Shown here: one piece after another, positions 8,395-21,255 of the stretch
Position numbering within the stretch: the stretch's first letter is position 1
How the letters are laid out: every line of letters begins with the position of its first letter
Virus record (IMG/VR): IMGVR_UViG_3300046318_000171
Span: 27,239 to 91,238 of that record
Length of the DNA stretch: 64,000 nucleotides
Reading direction: 5' to 3' (one strand)
Source of the DNA: a virus
Translations under genes and position numbers: made by a program
Notes under the pieces: generated by a model
Database searches by the model: none
What the model was told of the DNA's origin: nothing
Seen by the model: the letters and a program-made list of their open reading frames with translations, nothing else

Positions 8395-10440
8395 TTATGC
8401 GTTGTCTTTAATCAACTTAATCTCACAAGCGTCTGTGGTGCAGTAAGCCTCGCCAATAGCGTCGATACCTAGTCCAGCATAGACTCCAGAGAAATCAATA
8501 GGGAACAACTGCTTTGAGTACTCATCATACACGTCCTCAGTAATCTGAGTGTACGGCATCTGAGGGTACGTGTCATTGCCCATAGGCAAGAACGACACAG
8601 TCTTCAACTGACCATCGTACATGTGCAGCGCAGTACCTACCGAGTCCGATTCCTTTTCAGCATCAAAGGTTACAGTAACCGACACCGAGTTGTCTGACCA
8701 GTAACGCTGTGCCTGAGCAGCCAACGCCATCTTCTCGTAGATTGAAACTTCCTTCTCTGAACGCTTAGCGTCAGACTTGATAGGGAAGAATACAACAGAC
8801 GTAGTGTCTGGAGACTCTGACGCCGGTTCAATACGGTACTGAGCCATCTTAAACAACGCCAACATAGGGTCGCTGTTCGAGAAACGAATAGCACGCAAGA
8901 AGAATTTACCACCCGCAGTCCAGTGAACACCTGGACTTTCGCCAGCCAAAATAGACACAGTGCCTGAAGGCTTAACCGTAGTCATCTTAATTGACTCACG
9001 GATACCTAGCCATTCACTGTACGTCTTGTCGTACTCCTTAACCACACCATAACCTTCATCCATCCACTCACGTAGAGTCTGCATACCACGGTTGTCTGCG
9101 AAGTTAGCCACGCCACTGATTGATGTACCAATGCGGCGGTTGCGCTGCATAATTGCGTTGGTCTCTTCCCAGTGGGTAGGTAGCAAGGTCACAGTCTTTG
9201 CGTAGAGGTAAGCAAACTTGAGGGTACGCTTGAAGTCCTCTAGGCTGTCGTGACGGTTCAAGTAGGTCTCAACCAAGGTGCACATCTCAAAGCTTTCAAG
9301 GCTCTGCTCTGCACAAGGGTTGTAGCCAACTACACGGCGGTCCTTGTTGTTTACCGGGTCGGCAAGACGGCCATACTTACGGCTAACATCCATCCAGATA
9401 ACTCCTGGCTCACCGTTACGAACAATTCCGTCAACAATTGGCGAGAAGTCAGTGCCAACACAAACATCAACGCTGTTGTTCGACATCCATGCCCAGCCTG
9501 GGTTGTTAGGGTCGTACGAGTTACGGTCAGGGAATACATCAGCGTTCTTAAGGTTCAAGAAGTCTGCGTCGTCAATACGGCCAATCAATAGCTCCGCTGA
9601 ACGACGTACGTTACCTGAAACTACACAGACACCAATCATGTTGCCGATGTCTGCAATGTCCTTACGAGTTAGCTGCTCACCAGCACGGCCAATGAACATC
9701 TTGCGGATGTGTGCGTGCAAACGCTCCAACGGCTCACTACCTGCTGCGGTTCCACCAAAGGTCTTGATAGGAGCACCGTATGGGCGAATCTGTGAGTAAT
9801 CAAACTCAATCAACTTCTGCTCTGGCTTTAGGAACGAGTTAATCAACGCTACGGTTGACTCCTGCCAGCCTTCACGAGTGTCTGGGATTTCGTAGCTAGA
9901 TACGCCTGATGGCTCGTAAATCTCGAACCCCTTGTCCGCACCCTTGTCATCGAACCCTACACCAACGCCTAGCATCGACGCTTCCATTAGGAAACCAAAT
10001 GGCTTGGCTGGGTTGTTCTTGGTCATTTCGTTAGTTGAAACAAACGCACAGTTCTGTAGGGCTGCTGAATTCTTCTGGGTGTTAACAATGTCAGTGCCCA
10101 TTACCCATAGGCCACGGCCCGGTGGAGTCCACTTCAAATTGAATAGGCGGTCAAACGCCTCTTTTGCTGATGCTGCCGCTTTTGCGTCGCTCCATGGAAG
10201 GCGGCTAGACTTAGCCCAGTCCTTCTGCAATGAATACATGCCGTTGATTACACGCTCACACACTTCCGCCCAAGTTTCCTTGGTGTCGTCTTCTTTCTTA
10301 CGGCTGTATGTTCTGAGGAATGTAATCTCGCCTACTGAGTTTCCTGCTACGTCTGCGTAACCAAACGGCGGCTTCTTGTCCTTGTAACCTGCGACGAACT
10401 CGCTCGCTAACTGGAATGAAAAATTAGTCATAACCACCAT
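8395..10440 (-). CDS. nrdJ: Class II adenosylcobalamin-dependent ribonucleotide reductase (monomeric RTPR type)
   Basis: PPGRGLW, NCAF, GNVRRSA, NPCAEQ, TVKPSGT, C-terminal CxxxxC. Confidence 0.93.
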   Translation of the reverse strand: MVVMTNFSFQLASEFVAGYKDKKPPFGYADVAGNSVGEITFLRTYSRKKEDDTKETWAEVCERVINGMYSLQKDWAKSSRLPWSDAKAAASAKEAFDRLFNLKWTPPGRGLWVMGTDIVNTQKNSAALQNCAFVSTNEMTKNNPAKPFGFLMEASMLGVGVGFDDKGADKGFEIYEPSGVSSYEIPDTREGWQESTVALINSFLKPEQKLIEFDYSQIRPYGAPIKTFGGTAAGSEPLERLHAHIRKMFIGRAGEQLTRKDIADIGNMIGVCVVSGNVRRSAELLIGRIDDADFLNLKNADVFPDRNSYDPNNPGWAWMSNNSVDVCVGTDFSPIVDGIVRNGEPGVIWMDVSRKYGRLADPVNNKDRRVVGYNPCAEQSLESFEMCTLVETYLNRHDSLEDFKRTLKFAYLYAKTVTLLPTHWEETNAIMQRNRRIGTSISGVANFADNRGMQTLREWMDEGYGVVKEYDKTYSEWLGIRESIKMTTVKPSGTVSILAGESPGVHWTAGGKFFLRAIRFSNSDPMLALFKMAQYRIEPASESPDTTSVVFFPIKSDAKRSEKEVSIYEKMALAAQAQRYWSDNSVSVTVTFDAEKESDSVGTALHMYDGQLKTVSFLPMGNDTYPQMPYTQITEDVYDEYSKQLFPIDFSGVYAGLGIDAIGEAYCTTDACEIKLIKDNA

Positions 10441-10603: not shown

Positions 10604-12079
10604 CTAGTTCTCTATCTGATTACGGATAATCATGGTGGTTTTCTCTTCGCCTAACCCTGCCTGCTGGTCCTTAACGGCCTGCACACGGTCACCAAAAATC
10701 GCACTCAAAACACCCTGTCCAGCACTACGCTGCGCAGTAATCTGGATGAACTCTTTGTTCTCGTCCAGCTCTTTAATATTCTTCAACATCTTCTGATAAC
10801 GGTCAATCTCTTGCGACACGTTTGGGTCTGCGTATCCACCGTTCAATTCTTCTGCAAACCGCATAAACATTACTCTCTGGGCCTGCATCTCCAACATTGC
10901 GGTATTCAATGCACGCAACTGTTCAGGGGTCTTAACCTCTACTGGCAGACTAAACGCACAGGTGTTTTGCGGCTTAAATGCAGGGCAATTTGACGCTACA
11001 AAACAGGTGTCGCACTGGCGCAAACTGGTCACATTTGAACTAACAACAACGCTGTCTTTGAGGACATCAACACCGTTTTCGGTTTCCACAACCTGCTTGA
11101 CTTGGTACCCCAAAACAGGCATTGAAACGACCTCTTCTGGGTCTCTTTGGACCACTTCTGAGCGTTCAACTTTCCGCATCTCCGACCCACTGTTATTAGA
11201 CGACCCCCCACCCATTTCCATCAAACCCGTGTATAGGGTGTCGTCACTCTTATCAGATAGGAACGGGTTATTATTGGTTGTCATGTTGCCTTCTAACTGT
11301 AAATATGACCAAACGGCTACTTTAGTCGCTTCGGTTGTGTCGTCGTCTACGAACTTTTTGAAATCTAGCCCAGCTCGGTCCAACGTCGCCTTGTATCTCG
11401 GTCGGGCCTGGGCTTTCATTTTTTTTGGGTATCGAACCAGCTTCATTCCATCCCAAATGATTGTCTCACCATTTCTCATTGGTGACAACCACGACAGTGT
11501 GCTTGTGGTTGTAAACGGAATACTCCTCAGGTTATCCGGTTTGGCCACTGCAAGGCCGTGGAACCGTGTTTGATACTTTTGGACTAAACTACGTGTAATC
11601 CCCGCTAATGCCGTCACAGCGTCTACAGCGGCTCCTGGGAGGGCAATGTTCTGGTACTCCTCTGCCCACTGACTTATCACCGGCAAACCGTACGCTTCGT
11701 GCCACACCACCCACAACTTAGGGTCGTTCTCAAATGCGGCTCGTTGCTGCTTAATCCACGGCAATCCCATTACCTGGCTGTCAAACTCAACCCAGCCCTC
11801 AATACGGTCGTAATTTAGGGCGATAAACTCTTCATACTCGGCCGCATAATCCTCTAACTCGGCCCTTGACAGGTTGGCTTTATCCGCCTGAGTTGCCCCC
11901 GAGTCTACCCACACTTTCATCTCTGGCAGGAAATGCTCACCAATTAGATACGCCTTGTTCTTAGGCAACCCACGCTTCTTCAACCCCCAGTAATTCAACA
12001 TTACGTGTTGAACACCGCTCTTCTCCAATAGGGTGCGGTTTGACGGGATTTCTACGCCCCCAAAAATTACCCTACTCAA
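10604..12079 (-). CDS. TGT/DpdA-like TIM-barrel domain fused to a Cys4 and helical C-terminal domain
   Basis: VWVDSGA, WVEFD, VVWH, IALPG, RFHGLA, PF...S..SW; C-terminal CDTC..CP..C. Confidence 0.6.
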   Translation of the reverse strand: MSRVIFGGVEIPSNRTLLEKSGVQHVMLNYWGLKKRGLPKNKAYLIGEHFLPEMKVWVDSGATQADKANLSRAELEDYAAEYEEFIALNYDRIEGWVEFDSQVMGLPWIKQQRAAFENDPKLWVVWHEAYGLPVISQWAEEYQNIALPGAAVDAVTALAGITRSLVQKYQTRFHGLAVAKPDNLRSIPFTTTSTLSWLSPMRNGETIIWDGMKLVRYPKKMKAQARPRYKATLDRAGLDFKKFVDDDTTEATKVAVWSYLQLEGNMTTNNNPFLSDKSDDTLYTGLMEMGGGSSNNSGSEMRKVERSEVVQRDPEEVVSMPVLGYQVKQVVETENGVDVLKDSVVVSSNVTSLRQCDTCFVASNCPAFKPQNTCAFSLPVEVKTPEQLRALNTAMLEMQAQRVMFMRFAEELNGGYADPNVSQEIDRYQKMLKNIKELDENKEFIQITAQRSAGQGVLSAIFGDRVQAVKDQQAGLGEEKTTMIIRNQIEN

Positions 12080-12557
12080 AATTCAACGTTTCTGTTCTGC
12101 TCAGACGGGCGTCCTGCGTGCGCAAAATGTTCTGTTGCTTGATGGCCTCTTCGATGTCGTTCCATGCTCGAACCTTCTTTGGGGCATCCGGGCGGAACTC
12201 TACACGGGTGTACGATGGCACACCGAACATGGCGCTTGGGATACCCATGTCAAACGCATACGCCCATAATGATGGGTCGTTGGTGATAAACAAATCTACT
12301 GGCCCTCGGCTACGGGCGAACTTAATCTGGCGTTCTTTGAGGTTCTCGTCAACTAGGCTTACTGAACCGTCAACGATACGGTCATAATCTACTACCTTGT
12401 TGTTGTCCAACCAGTGGACTATCTCAGCTTCTGTGCCTGGCCCCATGAACGTCAATGCGTTGTACACGCTGAGTGTACCAACCATCAGGATTCCTGTTCC
12501 GATTGGTTCGTCTTTTTGACCTTTGAGTACGCCGTCTATGTCTACGAGTATTTGCAT
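12072..12557 (-). CDS. HAD-superfamily phosphatase-like protein
   Basis: N-terminal ILVDIDGVL (DxD motif I). Confidence 0.65.
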   Translation of the reverse strand: MQILVDIDGVLKGQKDEPIGTGILMVGTLSVYNALTFMGPGTEAEIVHWLDNNKVVDYDRIVDGSVSLVDENLKERQIKFARSRGPVDLFITNDPSLWAYAFDMGIPSAMFGVPSYTRVEFRPDAPKKVRAWNDIEEAIKQQNILRTQDARLSRTETLNFE

Positions 12558-12563
12558 GGTTTT

Positions 12564-12569
12564 ATCCTA
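12564..12569 (-). promoter_or_regulatory. -10 element TAGGAT, 6 nt before ATG (leaderless)
   Basis: TANNNT-N6-ATG, no SD. Confidence 0.55.
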
Positions 12570-13445
12570 TTGGTTGCGGTGCAACGCCGCCCGTCTAATT
12601 AACGTACTTGTTGACGGCAATTCAACTCCGTACAACTCCTGGGCGTTGCTGGTGAGGTAACGTCGCAACGACCTCAAATCTTGAACTGTTCCTGCACGCT
12701 TGCCTGCCTGCCAACGGTAGTTGTGGAAATCTCCGTACCCTGAACCTGTTGGCGAAAACGCCATTGAACGGTTCTCGTGAATCTGGGTGTACAATGCGTT
12801 GGCCTGCTGTGCAGCTGCGGTCAATCGAACTTCTGCGTTACGCTTCATCGGCTCATTGTGGGCCATCTGAATGTCGTTCACGGCCTGGGTTACCCTTGTA
12901 CGGGCCTGTGTGGCCTGCTGACGGTCGTTCTCGACAATCTGGTCCCACTCAGCGTTCTTAGGTGCCTGGGCGTTAGGGTCCGGTGTGACGGTCCACTCGT
13001 CGTACTTCAAATCGTACGCTGCGTATGGGTTAATCGTGCGGATGTCTGTCGCAATCGGGTTGACGTAAAATGTCAACTCGTAACCGTTCCAGTTCTCTGT
13101 CTGACCGTGCAATTCCTCGTGGAATTCTTCATTCATCTGCTCAGAGATTTCCTTGTCCAACAAACCTGCAAACTCTGGGTTTGCCTTGCGGAACTGAACG
13201 AAATCGACTCCGACCAAACAGTCTAGGTCACGTGGCTCACGTGCTGCTGACCACTGGTACGATACACCGCTACCTGCTAACCAGGCGTGTGCCCAAATGT
13301 CCGAGTGGCGGTACTTCAGCGATAGAAAATCTTTTAAAACACTCAACACACCTGTTCGTGCCCATGAGCGCAGGTGACGACTCTCAAACAACTTAGGGTC
13401 TAGTTCTTGCGCAGGGGCACTGAAATAGGACGTTGGAATAGTCAT
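12567..13445 (-). CDS. Pol-beta superfamily nucleotidyltransferase
   Basis: LAGS..SY.W...DLDC motif and third acidic residue in YELTFY. Confidence 0.75.
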   Translation of the reverse strand: MTIPTSYFSAPAQELDPKLFESRHLRSWARTGVLSVLKDFLSLKYRHSDIWAHAWLAGSGVSYQWSAAREPRDLDCLVGVDFVQFRKANPEFAGLLDKEISEQMNEEFHEELHGQTENWNGYELTFYVNPIATDIRTINPYAAYDLKYDEWTVTPDPNAQAPKNAEWDQIVENDRQQATQARTRVTQAVNDIQMAHNEPMKRNAEVRLTAAAQQANALYTQIHENRSMAFSPTGSGYGDFHNYRWQAGKRAGTVQDLRSLRRYLTSNAQELYGVELPSTSTLIRRAALHRNQ

Positions 13446-13451
13446 AGGACT

Positions 13452-13457
13452 ATTCTA
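13452..13457 (-). promoter_or_regulatory. -10 element TAGAAT, 6 nt before ATG (leaderless)
   Basis: TANNNT-N6-ATG, no SD. Confidence 0.6.
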
Positions 13458-13739
13458 TTCGGCTACAGTGGTGCTTTCTGGGTTAATTCCACGCTCTTTT
13501 AGCTTGTCCTTGATGACATCTGCTGGCGTAGTTACCGGCGGCATCAGGGTAGCAATGACCTTACTGGCCACACGGTCAGCCAACAACCCCATCTCAAACT
13601 CGTCAGCAATCTGCTTGGCGGCCTGGTACACGTCGTAGTTTGTTGCTACTCGTTCCGCTACCGGCATCTCTTCTGGCATCTCTGCGTACGAGGTTAGTGT
13701 GCCATCTTTGTTAACTGTGATTAGGAAAAAAGTCTCCAT
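13455..13739 (-). CDS. Hypothetical protein
   Basis: TAATG coupling. Confidence 0.75.
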   Translation of the reverse strand: METFFLITVNKDGTLTSYAEMPEEMPVAERVATNYDVYQAAKQIADEFEMGLLADRVASKVIATLMPPVTTPADVIKDKLKERGINPESTTVAE

Positions 13740-14308
13740 TAGTACATACCCATAATCTTTCTCTTTCGCTGAACTACTTCGCCGTGGTATGGGCAGAAGT
13801 GGCAGGTGTAAATCTTTGGACCATCTAGGTGCTCAGGCTTTGGCAGGCCCAGCTCTCCACGCTCTTTGGCGGTGTCTGGCAACAGACGCTTTGATGGTTT
13901 CTGGTAATCGTCGCAGTCATTCTTTGGCTGGTTGTGTTTCATCCAGCACTCCATTGCGTCTTCCGCAAACTGCATCTTAGTTTCGTAGAATGACTTGTCT
14001 GGGTCGATGTCGTCTAGACCTCGTGACCCGCCCTTACCCAACTGGTCAAGGACTGCCCTGCGCTCTTCTGGGTTGCCCCATACTTTTACTGGGACTTTAA
14101 ATAGTTTACCAACGTGTGGGTCGCCTGAAGGAAACTTGTGCTTCTCTAGGGCAATCTCTAACAGGTAATCCTGGTCTGAACGGCCTTCGTGGTCAGGGAG
14201 TTCTTCCCATGTCTCACAAACCATGCAACGTAGCAAACGGATGATGGGCCCCTCAATTGGTTTAGAACCAATCAGGGGCTTTCCATCCGGCGAAATCAAA
14301 CCACTCAT
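13739..14308 (-). CDS. Hypothetical Cys/His metal-binding protein
   Basis: CMVC, C..H..C, CHFCP. Confidence 0.75.
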   Translation of the reverse strand: MSGLISPDGKPLIGSKPIEGPIIRLLRCMVCETWEELPDHEGRSDQDYLLEIALEKHKFPSGDPHVGKLFKVPVKVWGNPEERRAVLDQLGKGGSRGLDDIDPDKSFYETKMQFAEDAMECWMKHNQPKNDCDDYQKPSKRLLPDTAKERGELGLPKPEHLDGPKIYTCHFCPYHGEVVQRKRKIMGMY

Positions 14309-14484
14309 TAAATGGCTCCGTGACGCTTAATCCACGCCTGACCTTCTGTGGTCTTCAGGTCCTGCTCACGCTTAGCTTCAAGAGCTCTCTGGGCCTTCTC
14401 GTGGGCCTCTGAACCGCTCATTGGTCGTGGTGCATCTCCACGGGTCCACATCATAATTCCTAGGTGGGGTGCTTCAGTGCTCAT
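14308..14484 (-). CDS. 58-aa protein not in the track (MSTEAPHLG...)
   Basis: SD AAGGAG; TAATG coupling. Confidence 0.7.
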   Translation of the reverse strand: MSTEAPHLGIMMWTRGDAPRPMSGSEAHEKAQRALEAKREQDLKTTEGQAWIKRHGAI

Positions 14485-14512
14485 GTTGTTCTCCTTATCA
14501 GTGATACGAATT

Positions 14513-15431: not shown

Positions 15432-17330
15432 TTAACGTAGAACGGTGGCGTTTACTCGTGGAATTCCCACGCCTGCCATAGTTTGAAGGGTTTCACGGTA
15501 CTTACCTACCAAGTCAGAACCTGCGCCTAGGTGAGCGAGGTCCTGCACGTGAGAGCTCTCTGACCCTGCTTTAGCGAGGTACTTTGCAGCGTCAGTAGTA
15601 CGGTCCATGGCTGTACGCATGTGTCCAGCCAAAATCTGTGGGTCAGCAGAATCGTTGCTCTTAAGGTAACGGCTGTGCTCCTGGAACGCTCCTAGGGCGT
15701 TGTTTAGGTGCTGAGCTACGCTAGGGTCAACGTCTACACCCTGGCCAACCAAGTCTCTGTACGACTTCTTTACAGCGGTAAAGTGGTCGTACATGTTCTG
15801 CATCTGGCTCTTAACACCAGGTGCGTACTTAGCGGTACGTTCATCAGTTGCTTGGGTATTCTTGGCTTGCTGGTTGGCGAAGATTTGTGCACGAGTCATC
15901 TCACGCAAACTTCCCCATGACGACTTACCTTCACGCTGCTGAGTTGCACGGATGTTTGGTGCGTAAGTAGCAAACGCCTCATCTTGACGTTGCTTCTTCA
16001 ATTCCTCAAGGTCTCTTGCGGTGTTCTTCTTGTCATAACCTACAGGAGCCATAACAGGCACTGACGTGTCCTGCTCTCTTGGAGATTGCGCACCAGGAAC
16101 GTTGATGTTGTTTTTCTTCAAGTATTCTGCTGGATTTTTTTCGACTTCTGCTCTTGCAAACGCATGAGATTGTGCGGCGCTTCTCTGAACCAAGTTCTGG
16201 TTTCCTGAAGCGTATTCTGTAAAACTACCCGCATTATCAAACTTGTTTACCGCTTCTTCGTATCGTGCTTGGTGGTCTGGAGATGGGAAAGCCAACTCAA
16301 GAGTTCCGTACCTAGTTGACCCACCAAAATCACGAGGAGTTGGGCGCACTGGAACAGGGTTGTTAGCGTCGAAGTGCTGCAAAGCTGCCTGCTTGATTAC
16401 TGGTGACATACCAGCAACAGGGGTGACTGTGGCTGAGCTACGGACCATACCGATTGTTCTAGGCGGAGTCTTTGCCTCGGTGTACGCCTGAGCCTCTAGT
16501 GAACGCTCGTAACGTTCACGGGCATGCGATGCGTGGTCTTCACCGTTAGGGAACAACTCACGAGTACCAAAAGGAGCACGGTTAGTCTCGTTGATTACGT
16601 CGCCAATTCCCTTACCCGAACCTTCTTTTCTGCGCATGTGCCCAACAATTTCGTTAGCAGCATCACCATAAGTGCGGTTTTGATTGCGGTAATTGTTAGT
16701 AAAATCTCCACCACTTTGGCCAGCGATTAGGCGTAGGTGGTGAGCAGCCATGCCGATAGCTTTTGCTGCCATGTTGAGGTGGTCACCCGGAGTTCGCAAA
16801 CGCTGGTTCTTAATCTCAGCGACATCGTTTCCAGACAATGCCTGTCCAGGAATTTCGGCGTCACCCAAGTGCAGGGCACCGTACAAACCTAGCTTAGCTC
16901 CACCACCAGTTTTCCAGTTAGTTCCCTTGCCACCACGGGCAACGTTTTCTGCGTCCGCAATGTGAGCGTATGCGTTTCCAAGTAGTGGGTGAACGTGAGA
17001 GTCTAGAAGTGCTCGAGTATCCTCGTCTGCGTTGTCGTGGTGCTCATCAGCAGCGTTACTCAGCTTAGTGATGAGGTCTGACATGTGCCCAAACAAATCG
17101 TTAGGCGCAGTACCTGTGCTAGCTGCCTCAGTGTACTCTGCGACACGGTCAACTTTTTTTGCCTCTGCAGCACCCGCAGCAATCTTGTTAGTCTTAGTGC
17201 CTTTAGGTGCCATTCCCTTTACTGCAGCACGAGTTAGGCGAGCGGCCTCTGCACGCTTGGCAGCTTCTGCTGGCGACTGGCCTTTTAGGTAGCCGCCGAT
17301 TCCGCCTTGATTACCATTGTTGGTTGCCAT
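15432..17330 (-). CDS. Large Ala/Gly/His-rich protein, possibly an internal virion protein
   Basis: 632-aa ORF, no recognised domain. Confidence 0.75.
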   Translation of the reverse strand: MATNNGNQGGIGGYLKGQSPAEAAKRAEAARLTRAAVKGMAPKGTKTNKIAAGAAEAKKVDRVAEYTEAASTGTAPNDLFGHMSDLITKLSNAADEHHDNADEDTRALLDSHVHPLLGNAYAHIADAENVARGGKGTNWKTGGGAKLGLYGALHLGDAEIPGQALSGNDVAEIKNQRLRTPGDHLNMAAKAIGMAAHHLRLIAGQSGGDFTNNYRNQNRTYGDAANEIVGHMRRKEGSGKGIGDVINETNRAPFGTRELFPNGEDHASHARERYERSLEAQAYTEAKTPPRTIGMVRSSATVTPVAGMSPVIKQAALQHFDANNPVPVRPTPRDFGGSTRYGTLELAFPSPDHQARYEEAVNKFDNAGSFTEYASGNQNLVQRSAAQSHAFARAEVEKNPAEYLKKNNINVPGAQSPREQDTSVPVMAPVGYDKKNTARDLEELKKQRQDEAFATYAPNIRATQQREGKSSWGSLREMTRAQIFANQQAKNTQATDERTAKYAPGVKSQMQNMYDHFTAVKKSYRDLVGQGVDVDPSVAQHLNNALGAFQEHSRYLKSNDSADPQILAGHMRTAMDRTTDAAKYLAKAGSESSHVQDLAHLGAGSDLVGKYRETLQTMAGVGIPRVNATVLR

Positions 17331-17533
17331 TACGCCATCTTTCCTTTAATTCTTTTTGCTCGCTTAATCTCAGCACAAGGAGAGCAAATACCTAAACGAC
17401 TGTACATGTACTCCGTAGGGTTCATCACAATACCGCATGATGGGCAAGCAGATGAGCCTTTATACAGGGTAGCATTTTTTGCGATTTGAAATGCCTGAAG
17501 TTCTAAAGTTAGAGCGCCGTCTCCGTCGTTCAT
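17330..17533 (-). CDS. Small zinc-ribbon protein
   Basis: CPSC..CSPC; coupled. Confidence 0.7.
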   Translation of the reverse strand: MNDGDGALTLELQAFQIAKNATLYKGSSACPSCGIVMNPTEYMYSRLGICSPCAEIKRAKRIKGKMA

Positions 17534-19332
17534 TACTCCCCAATCTTAGGCAGTGATGGGACGACTGTGCGGTCACGCATAGTTTCCTTTGCCATTGCCA
17601 TGGCTTGAGCAGTACCGCTTGCTCGGAGTACCTTGCGCAAATCTTTAGGAACCTGTCCTTGCCCCTCTACACCGGTGCCTGTTCCAGCAACAATGTGGTC
17701 GTGGGCTTCTTTGATTAGTGCGGTCATACCACCTGGGGTAATTCGCTCAATCATTCTAGGGCCAGATTTTTCTGGTTTTGCGGTAGATTTACGTGGCTTC
17801 TTAGCTTCAGCTGCTTCTTTAGCCAACTGGTCTTTGATAGACAACGACGGCCCCATTTCGCCAACCGGACGGTCAGGTCCTCCGGCACGAGTAGTTACTC
17901 CACCGGTGGTTTCTACTGGGACACCTACAGCGGCACGGCCAGCGTAAACTGCTCGCTGACCCTTACGAGTCTGGTTAAGGAATCCTTGAAGTTTAGGAAT
18001 GTCTGGGTGGTTAGACGAAACGGCTTTCAACTGAGTTAGCAGCTTGTTGCTGATAGGCTCCTGACGAAGTTTACCTGCAGTTTCTGAGTTTACAACTTTA
18101 CCGTTCTTAACAATAGGCTGTTCACGGTCTGTAGAAATAAACATGTGACCTGGCTTTGACAAAGCATCTTCTGGATTAAGAAGGTTGTTGTCCTTGTCGT
18201 ACCTAGCCAATAGCGGGTCGATGTCCTGGAGTGCCTGAACGTTTGTCTTGTTCTTCGGAACCTGTAGACCCTTAGTTTTTTTCTCTCCAGTAGGAGTGGT
18301 GGTCTCCTTGTAACGGACTGCGTTTGCTACATCGCTCATTTCGCTGTCTGAGACTGGGCTCTGCAAACCGTGCTTGCTAAGCAACGAACGGTTAAGGATT
18401 CCGTTAGCGGTCTTTAGGTGCTTAACTGCTTTAACGATGAAGGCGTGGTTGTCCGCCTGGTTTTTAAACTTAAACTTACCATCGCTACCCTTCAATCCAC
18501 TAAGAATAGACTGCGCCTCGACCAGGTTGTTATCTACTCCAAGCTTCTCACGAAGAACGTGTGCGCTTGCTTGCGTGCGAAGTTCTCCTGCGCTATCACG
18601 AGCAGTGTTTATCATGCTTCTGACTGAGCCAGCAGCCTTACCTTTTAGGGAATAGCCTTGGCTTATAGTGTCTGCAACGTTGGCACGACGGTCGTACTCT
18701 GACGCTTTTGAGTTTAGCTTTGAATCCAATCCGTCATAGTGCGCACGGATTCGGTCATGGATGTCCATGGCGACTTTCCATGCCTTGTCTGCTGCGCCTG
18801 CACCACTAAAAGTTTGGCGCTTAAATGATGGGCCAGACTTAACTGGAGTAGGAACAAACCCTTTGTTGTGCTCACACTTATCGGTGCTGCAACGGCCACG
18901 CAAGATGTGGTCAGTGATATGCTTAACAGCGTCTTCGGTAACACGAGACTTATAGATGTTGTCTTCAGTGTCAATCTTGTCTTCAAGAGAGCTGCCTTCT
19001 GCCTGCTTTTCTGCAGGAGTTCGGTAGTCTGGGCGGGTCCTGACACCGTCTAGGTCTATCTCAGATAGGTCAGTGTTCTGGGCTGTAGGTGCGGCCATGT
19101 CAGCAGTAGACAAGGTGCGGCCCGAGTCATACTCGTCAAATCCTTTGCCGCCAACTTTAATCTTGTCAGCGTCGGCCTCGCTCATAGCGTGGGCAGAGTC
19201 GGCCCTCTTACGGCCCTCTTCGGCCTTAGCTGCAGCAGTCGTCTCTGCAGTGTCGAGAATTGCCTCGCCACCTAAGACCTTTTGTGCTTCGCTTGCGCTT
19301 TTAAAGAGTTCGCTGCGACTTACTGAACGCAT
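17533..19332 (-). CDS. Large hydrophilic protein, possibly an internal virion protein
   Basis: 599-aa ORF, no recognised domain. Confidence 0.75.
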   Translation of the reverse strand: MRSVSRSELFKSASEAQKVLGGEAILDTAETTAAAKAEEGRKRADSAHAMSEADADKIKVGGKGFDEYDSGRTLSTADMAAPTAQNTDLSEIDLDGVRTRPDYRTPAEKQAEGSSLEDKIDTEDNIYKSRVTEDAVKHITDHILRGRCSTDKCEHNKGFVPTPVKSGPSFKRQTFSGAGAADKAWKVAMDIHDRIRAHYDGLDSKLNSKASEYDRRANVADTISQGYSLKGKAAGSVRSMINTARDSAGELRTQASAHVLREKLGVDNNLVEAQSILSGLKGSDGKFKFKNQADNHAFIVKAVKHLKTANGILNRSLLSKHGLQSPVSDSEMSDVANAVRYKETTTPTGEKKTKGLQVPKNKTNVQALQDIDPLLARYDKDNNLLNPEDALSKPGHMFISTDREQPIVKNGKVVNSETAGKLRQEPISNKLLTQLKAVSSNHPDIPKLQGFLNQTRKGQRAVYAGRAAVGVPVETTGGVTTRAGGPDRPVGEMGPSLSIKDQLAKEAAEAKKPRKSTAKPEKSGPRMIERITPGGMTALIKEAHDHIVAGTGTGVEGQGQVPKDLRKVLRASGTAQAMAMAKETMRDRTVVPSLPKIGE

Positions 19333-20958: not shown

Positions 20959-21255
20959 TTAGCTTACAGAAATGACAAACACAATTGCGCTGATGTCTCC
21001 ATCACGGCTTTCAATTGTGGTGAAACCAGGCTTCATGGTTAGGTCTAGACCACGAGGGGCTACATAGCCTCGTGCGATGGCGGCGGCCTTCACTGCTTGG
21101 TTTACTGCACCTGCACCTACGGCACGAAGCTTAACTTCACGCTTGTCGTAGATTGCGTGTGCAATTGCTGATGCTACTGATTGTGGATTTGAGCCTGCCG
21201 ATACACGGAGAAAGTCTTCCTCGGTGTTAGGTAGGATGGTCGGTTCTTCGGTCAC
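20959..21255 (-). CDS. spoVS: Stage V sporulation protein S (SpoVS) homolog
   Basis: LRVSAGSNPQSVASAIA...AVGAGAVNQAVKA.AIARGYVAP.GLDL. Confidence 0.92.
   Translation of the reverse strand: MTEEPTILPNTEEDFLRVSAGSNPQSVASAIAHAIYDKREVKLRAVGAGAVNQAVKAAAIARGYVAPRGLDLTMKPGFTTIESRDGDISAIVFVISVS

Follow-up and report, generated by a model that had tools for sequence, protein, structure and literature searches.

A DpdA-family barrel protein and its conserved gene block in a relative of BRock-like actinophages

Does a row of phage genes in which a predicted nucleotidyltransferase (NTase) and a HAD-like protein stand beside a barrel of the TGT/DpdA type encode a single pathway? The question is raised by six open reading frames (ORFs), designated p58, p189, p94, p292, p161 and p491 from the length of their products (Table 1), in the phage genome IMGVR_UViG_3300046318_000171, a complete IMG/VR record of 91,238 bp with direct terminal repeats; the stretch analysed here, referred to as the window, comprises bases 27239-91238 of this record, that is 64,000 nucleotides. 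A preliminary description of this DNA had pictured the six genes as possibly one pathway composed of an NTase, a phosphatase and a base-exchanging enzyme. The block is real, yet it is not a working enzyme trio of the kind first pictured; it is best explained as a segment of the BRock-like actinophage backbone that is inherited vertically, reads in one direction and centres on a DpdA-family protein which has departed from canonical DpdA chemistry. As to its function, the reading preferred here, to which an even chance of being correct is assigned, is that the barrel, with p161, would have given up base exchange and would recognise guanine for some other purpose, the NTase being the only conventional catalyst.

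The TGT/DpdA-like barrel of p491

The TGT fold that had been proposed for p491 was confirmed by two structure comparisons. Residues 1-267 of the model are predicted with reasonable confidence (pLDDT ~75-92); the barrel matched bacterial TGT in Foldseek with an E value of 8e-7 and a probability of 1.00, and comparison of residues 1-283 with ArcTGT and TGT by VIA gave Z scores of 17-18 over 266-275 aligned residues, with a root-mean-square deviation of 3.3-3.8. At the sequence level p491 matches phrog_887 in PHROGs (E 1e-57), a hidden Markov model of 190 N-domains of the p491 family detected the DpdA of phage CAjan (gp35) with an E value of 9e-11, and BLASTP linked the CAjan protein to BCD7 at 8e-11. 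Taken together, sequence and model show p491 to be a predicted TGT-fold barrel, homologous to the phage DpdA proteins CAjan gp35 and BCD7 gp21 and fused to a Cys4/helical C-terminal domain. No match was obtained between p491 and the Pfam TGT family (PF01702) or in PDB sequence and profile searches, nor between Pfam TGT and the BCD7 and BRock records; Pfam returned nothing useful for the GiJojo and BCD7 homologues, and hhalign, in which the p491 family was compared with E. coli TGT or with a six-sequence TGT alignment, gave no link, the profiles being too shallow.

The traits shared with CAjan gp35 and the DpdA of phage 9g, which are of the DpdA1 type, are the TGT-type barrel, the Asp of the DSG motif, the S-x-S-W segment and a conserved His that follows the K/R-x-H-G/A strand. 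CAjan DpdA consists of only 306 aa, whereas p491 adds a 220-residue linker and Cys4/helical C-domain, which are conserved from BCD7 through the BRock-like phages to the window; in fact, BCD7 gp21 and BRock gp36 (phrog_887) belong to the same family as p491 over the whole length, C-domain included. With TGT and ArcTGT (1q2r, 1iq8) the barrel is shared, and the DSG and F-D motifs of p491 line up with D89 and D143 of the E. coli enzyme, but an Asp in the nucleophile position is lacking and the identity is 10-14%. The zinc motif of TGT, CxCxxC...H, is absent from residues 1-290 of p491, and the C-domain carries another Cys4 cluster, C356xxC359x5C365x8C374. The clade is large and comprises 1707 protein clusters and 518 IMG/VR loci; the BRock homologue is labelled "queuine tRNA-ribosyltransferase" or "dpdA-like TGT" in GenBank.

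The gene call for p491 in the source record (P0130) is 465 aa long and starts 26 codons later than the ORF considered here, the difference lying at window positions 12001-12079. Orthologues start at an upstream TTG, ATG or GTG, and the residues skipped by the shorter call include the invariant F6, G8, E10 and S13-T16; the longer ORF, which overlaps p161, is likely to be the true gene.

The position taken as that of the nucleophile is where most of the family departs from CAjan. In one alignment register the segment ending in the conserved Trp reads YSCDSSSW in CAjan, FTGDSTTW in BCD7, ESVASTSW in GiJojo and TTTSTLSW in the window, and the Asp of CAjan and BCD7, four residues before the Trp, is the sole acidic residue of this strand segment. 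This Asp was equated with D264 of E. coli TGT, at the end of the last barrel strand, and was taken as the nucleophile because mutation of the putative nucleophile Asp in a bacterial DpdA abolishes exchange; in particular, replacement by Ala of either this residue or Asp95 abolished guanine exchange (PMC10164549). The corresponding position of p491, 193, is occupied by Ser in 171 of the 190 family sequences aligned, by Thr in 17, and by Ala and Asp in one each; Ser is found in the window and in BRock, Ala in GiJojo, and the sole Asp is that of BCD7. No conserved acid occurs in this alignment at positions 189-197 or 200.

The gene context differs along with this residue. BCD7 gp21, which keeps the Asp, adjoins folE, queC, queE and queD and is the only such member of the set; no QueC, FolE or QueD is encoded in the complete 91-kb genome, and the absence of a preQ0 gene cluster sets p491 apart from the DpdA1 type. 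In the list of Hutinet et al. (2019), BCD7 YP_007005872 appears as a DpdA accompanied by FolE, QueD, QueE and QueC; BRock APC46298 appears as a DpdA singleton, a class whose function, according to these authors, may have diverged.

The rest of the site is strongly conserved across the same 190 sequences. Position 59, the acid of the D-S-G motif and the general acid/base position, is Asp in 165 and Glu in 25, and its surroundings in p491 (VWVD59SGA) align with FLDSGA of CAjan and TDSGG of E. coli (D89 in TGT, Asp95 in DpdA). E98-F-D100 is invariant, D100 occupying the position of the base-recognition Asp (E. coli D143, DpdA Asp130), although its register against the CAjan sequence may be off by 1 to 4 residues. 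H174, which aligns with KLHAFG of CAjan, is present in 188 sequences, and S60, G61 and W197 are also invariant or nearly so. Since D/E59, E98-F-D100, H174 and W197 vary so little, the base pocket of p491 looks retained, as far as the alignment can tell. The invariant acids E10, E98 and E205 lie at barrel strand ends.

The nucleotidyltransferase p292 and the HAD-like protein p161

The NTase motif ascribed to p292 (G58-S59, D73-L-D75 and E123) proved real and conserved. In an alignment of 70 diverse homologues with 30-87% identity, G58, S59, D73, D75 and T125 never vary and E123 hardly does; no variation is seen at H223, R226 and several Gly residues of the C-terminal half either. Homologues recovered by an exhaustive HMMER search form 431 clusters at 50% identity. 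The AlphaFold (AF2) model has a pLDDT of 95 and a pTM of 0.88, and its residues ~18-148 align with the minimal NTases 1ylq, 1no5 (HI0073) and 8xeo (MNT) over 89-94 residues with Z scores of 6.2-6.5, which are modest, yet the match spans the whole minimal-NTase chains and agrees with the motif. Foldseek found weak full-length matches to ANT(6), CdnE, LinB, CdnD, CCA-adding enzymes and AadA (E 0.03-0.5, TM 0.2-0.26) in a list that mixes NTases with unrelated helical proteins and points to no single subfamily; in BFVD, further phage proteins with the p292 fold were detected, one of them named "NTase domain" protein (E 8.5e-8), and PF01909 is present in 12-33% of the members of the Atlas clusters of p292. 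Pfam, PHROGs and NCBIfam gave no match to p292 itself, and PDB sequence and profile searches were also empty. Motif and model show p292 to be a predicted Pol-beta nucleotidyltransferase with an intact catalytic site.

In comparison with known Pol-beta NTases (1ylq, HI0073 and MNT; ANT(6), LinB, AadA and CD-NTases), p292 shares the GS...DxD...E signature, the fold of the N-domain and the two-domain layout, but it has invariant motifs of its own, H223/R226 and an N-terminal LDPxLF, and belongs to a phage-specific clade; against full-length ANT and CD-NTase structures the TM score reaches only ~0.2-0.26. Seven homologues (P0250, P0269, P0270, P0284, P0295, P0312 and P0334) contain an insertion of ~115-200 residues, rich in Ser, Thr, Ala and Gly, just before the YEVTFY strand or, in P0250, just after it; these were considered as inteins and rejected as such, being low-complexity loops. 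Searches for related loci with single distant NTases as queries returned no loci.

For p161 a DxD motif of the HAD type had been reported, and the motif is indeed present in the window copy, where motif I reads D6-I-D8-G-V, but its first Asp is not conserved, so that it gives no evidence for a HAD phosphatase. Among 70 orthologues, BRock and GiJojo included, position 6 is Glu in 29, Ser in 23, Asp in 15, Val in 2 and Gln in 1, and position 8 is Asp in 55, Asn in 6, Glu in 6, Ser in 2 and Gln in 1; the C-terminal PxYxxxExRPDAPxxxRxW is invariant. A metagenomic protein of 277 aa (P0343) joins in frame the C-terminal half of an NTase to a p161-like C-terminal half without the motif-I half, and represents either a natural fusion linking both families or an artefact of deletion or assembly. 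Longer fused forms of p161 were sought and none was found, which is weak evidence, and searches of Pfam, NCBIfam and PDB sequences and profiles gave no match to p161. Because motif I is variable, the C-terminal motif is invariant and P0343 dispenses with the motif-I half, a conserved phosphatase function of p161 appears unlikely, and the protein is probably a pseudo-HAD.

The arrangement of the reading frames shows p161 to be coupled to p491, at the level of predicted translation. These two genes form the tightest pair of the block: of 77 loci, 68 have them overlapping or no more than 20 nt apart. A complex prediction for the p491 N-domain with p161 scored 0.00 ("no answer") and was counted neither for nor against binding.

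Inheritance and layout of the block

The structural and replication genes of the window phage are collinear with those of Streptomyces phage BRock, with identities of 61% for the major capsid protein, 58% for the portal, 52% for the terminase and 36% for the DNA polymerase; therefore, on sequence grounds, this freshwater phage is related to the BRock-like myoviruses, distantly but with the gene order preserved. Among its close relatives are records named "uncultured Caudovirales phage UFOVP". Conserved linkage in related phages, on which the preliminary description had made its proposal depend, was found: the order p189-p94-p292-p161-p491 is kept in the IMG/VR relatives examined (80 loci of the 518 found, with 58-77% identity in p491), the block is present in five BRock-like Streptomyces phages, which share the whole of it with the window, and the gene order is retained down to ~30% identity. 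In BRock and GiJojo four genes of the block can be recognised; their order is unchanged, but an endolysin and one further gene stand among them. In 50,697 phage records p292 and p189 each occur only in these five phages, all with the full-length p491 type. Since whole genomes are collinear, the linkage is due to vertical inheritance and shows retention, not independent recruitment.

Other DpdA carriers differ in this respect: p491, unlike the phage DpdA1 type, has p161, the NTase and p189 as conserved neighbours, and BCD7 lacks homologues of p292, p189 and p161 in the 14-kb locus examined (tblastn, E <=1) and of p292 and p189 record-wide (E <=1e-3). No nucleotide match of the block to phages was found by blastn, and among all proteins scanned with Pfam, NCBIfam and PHROGs only p491 (phrog_887) and the neighbouring ribonucleotide reductase (RNR) gave matches. 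No description of the block was found in the literature searched, in line with the preliminary description, in which it was not recognised as a described system. In a subset of the relatives (loci L019, L022, L025, L034 and L040) small extra genes (115-169 aa) are inserted on the p292 side of p161 and on its p491 side.

All six ORFs reported previously are present and their positions hold (Table 1). They run in the same direction, neighbours overlapping or lying at most ~10 nt apart, with gaps of 68 nt at the 5' side of the block and of 163 nt between p491 and the class II RNR, whose adjacency had also been noted correctly. The RNR is a downstream neighbour outside the module; it was detected in 60 of the 80 related loci, always downstream of p491 where detected, and in BRock it sits ~20 kb away from the block.

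Table 1. Features of the block and its surroundings, with positions in the window
Feature	Position	Strand	Basis or remark
Promoter-like TTGTGC-N17-TACACT	14541-14513	-	Read in sequence; candidate only
Ribosome-binding site AAGGAG	14491-14496	-	Between promoter-like site and ATG
p58, small protein, 58 aa	14308-14484	-	ORF; poorly conserved
p189, Cys/His protein, 189 aa, probably two-zinc	13739-14308	-	ORF and conserved Cys/His
p94, small acidic protein, 94 aa	13455-13739	-	ORF; same position as BRock gp41
p292, predicted Pol-beta-superfamily nucleotidyltransferase, 292 aa	12567-13445	-	Motif and model; N-domain ~18-155, helical-bundle C-domain 160-292
p161, HAD-like, probably pseudo-HAD, 161 aa	12072-12557	-	C-terminal motif PxYxxxExRPDAPxxxRxW; stop overlaps p491 start
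p491, TGT/DpdA-like, 491 aa	10604-12079	-	ORF
p491 N-domain, residues 1-267, predicted TGT/DpdA-type TIM barrel	11279-12079	-	D59-S-G, E98-F-D100, H174, Ser193
p491 linker (~268-350, low complexity) and C-terminal Cys4/helical domain with NGGYADP	10604-11278	-	
Class II (B12-dependent) ribonucleotide reductase	8395-10440	-	Pfam RNR_Alpha and RNR-II_ins_dom; phrog_367, E 2e-139

Three small genes open the block. The description of p189 as a Cys/His protein is borne out by its 65 orthologues, BRock gp42 and GiJojo gp175 among them, in which C28xxC31, C120, C132 and C168xxC171, that is six Cys, and two His are conserved; neither Pfam nor PHROGs gave a match. p94 was found in 68 of the 80 related loci at 29-64% identity, in a poorly conserved alignment, and p58 is detectable in only 4 of them and matched no family in Pfam, PHROGs or NCBIfam.

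A promoter had been read ahead of p58, and the sequence is there, followed by the ribosome-binding site and the ATG, but as a promoter it is a weak match: its hexamers fit the consensus at 3/6 and 4/6 positions, below the scan threshold, the arrangement occurs once in the whole genome, and the region holds no excess of promoter-like sites over shuffled sequence. Therefore it is at most a possible promoter.

Just upstream of the block, at window positions 15432-19332, lie two low-complexity proteins rich in Ala, Lys and Gly (632 and 599 aa) and a basic protein of 216 aa, none with a match in BRock; the basic protein, the only one of the three scanned, gave no match in Pfam or PHROGs. No tRNA was detected in the window, and the sole tRNA of the genome is a tRNA-Asn(GTT) at genome positions 21018-21092, one of the four anticodon types targeted by TGT, which may be a coincidence. 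GATC and CGCG are missing from the 91-kb genome, where ~245 and ~185 sites, respectively, would be expected; AGCT and ACGT are depleted as well, and BRock has zero GAGCTC, CAGCTG, CCGCGG and CTGCAG. The purge of GATC and CGCG is a signature of restriction-site avoidance, not of chemical protection, and weighs weakly against broad guanine modification.

Possible roles of the block

According to the preferred reading, p491, probably together with p161, would no longer put a 7-deazaguanine in the place of guanine by way of a covalent Asp intermediate; its retained guanine pocket would serve to recognise guanine, or to flip it, within a nucleic acid, DNA being the likeliest one. Such a non-exchange role could consist of protection, of counter-defence, or of presenting the base to another enzyme; the NTase would be the sole conventional catalyst of the block and may act on the same substrate or independently. 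A comparable fate is that of QTRT2, the eukaryotic non-catalytic TGT paralogue, which lost its catalytic residues and is kept as a binding subunit with the catalytic QTRT1. It offers a precedent for a TGT-fold protein with a lost catalytic residue, but the window phage encodes no catalytic DpdA or TGT.

Several points weigh against this reading. The mapping of Ser193 is based on the sequence alignment to CAjan and BCD7 and on the strand 191-194 of the model rather than on superposed residues; no mutation of CAjan's own Asp was found in the literature searched, and catalysis of another kind could be supported by Ser/Thr or by the invariant E10, E98 and E205. For the C-terminal half of p491 the model has a pLDDT <50, and the putative HAD-like assignment of p161 derives from an Atlas lead (0.88) and from the GenBank label "hydrolase" of GiJojo gp179. 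The synteny with BRock spans the whole genome, and conserved order alone does not show shared function. Other points concern the NTase: its domain is found inside multidomain proteins of 557-2850 residues with GNAT, 2H/LigT phosphoesterase and ParB-N domains, and an NTase-2H protein occurs in a 139.8-kb viral contig without a p491 homologue, so the family does not depend on the barrel. Extra genes separate p292 from p161 in 16 of 74 loci, and one relative (L014, IMGVR_UViG_3300032327_000479) lacks p292 anywhere in its 14-kb locus, in which p189, p94, p161, p491 and the RNR are kept and p94 is directly followed by p161; the tie of the NTase to the barrel is therefore weak.

The same observations tell against the single pathway of NTase, phosphatase and base-exchanger: the p161 nucleophile is variable, the DpdA nucleophile position holds Ser or Thr, the linkage is vertical, and members of the NTase family exist where there is no barrel, while one relative has no NTase.

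That p491 still functions as a transglycosylase on DNA or tRNA, using a host-made or salvaged base and another nucleophile or a non-covalent route, with the NTase and p161 making or trimming the base or nucleotide, is considered unlikely. Its strong conservation, a pocket and DSG motif that appear complete (D/E59, D100, H174), the extra invariant acids at the strand ends (E10, E98, E205), the tight packing of the block and the existence of singleton DpdAs known to use host preQ0 are what such an enzyme would lead one to expect. However, 188 of the 190 sequences have Ser or Thr where CAjan and BCD7 share an Asp, mutation of the putative nucleophile Asp in DpdA abolishes exchange (PMC10164549), and the genome has no preQ0 genes; moreover, the nucleophile of p161 is not conserved, hence there is no general phosphatase step, and the purging of GATC and CGCG, or of four 6-mers in BRock, would be unexpected if guanines were broadly modified.

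It is equally doubtful that the genes share a conserved early/middle array without any functional relation, with the NTase acting on its own in counter-defence or on RNA ends, p161 and p491 paired apart from it, and p189, p94 and p58 belonging to neither. The restriction of p292 and p189 to five phages with the full-length p491 type among the 50,697 records, the joining of NTase and p161 C-terminal halves in P0343 and the retention of gene order down to ~30% identity argue against such independence, even though the collinearity with BRock is genome-wide, the block of BRock and GiJojo is interrupted by an endolysin and another gene, proteins of other architectures and p491-free genomes also contain NTase-like domains, and one relative has no NTase and others have insertions.

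A more elaborate proposal, in which the barrel and the pseudo-HAD would act as a guanine-flipping reader that hands a guanine of DNA or RNA to the intact NTase, is regarded as improbable; if true, this handover would represent a previously unknown nucleotidyl-type modification of nucleic acid or a new counter-defence mechanism of actinophages. A tRNA-directed block, in which a dead TGT-like protein binds G34-type anticodon loops and the NTase repairs or extends RNA 3' ends against host tRNA nucleases, is likewise improbable. In its favour, the barrel resembles the tRNA-acting enzymes TGT and ArcTGT; the 2H/LigT phosphoesterases to which NTase-like domains are found fused belong to a domain class employed in healing RNA ends; the only tRNA of the genome, tRNA-Asn(GTT), is of the TGT-substrate type; and BRock has RNA ligases, a polynucleotide kinase and 29 tRNAs. 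Against it, the nearest sequence relatives of p491 are DNA-acting phage DpdAs and not tRNA TGTs, Pfam TGT gives no match, the BRock ligase and kinase genes have no homologue in the window genome, and a single tRNA may be coincidental.

DpdA has been proposed as a signature for 7-deazaguanine modification of DNA (PMC10516641). Because a large clade lacks both the Asp in the nucleophile position and the supply of the base, annotation as DpdA or TGT probably overstates how far modified DNA occurs among actinophages and freshwater phages. The strong constraint on the guanine-type pocket, whose gene travels with those of a conserved partner and of an intact NTase, points instead to an unstudied activity, and the question is directly testable because BRock-like phages are cultured.

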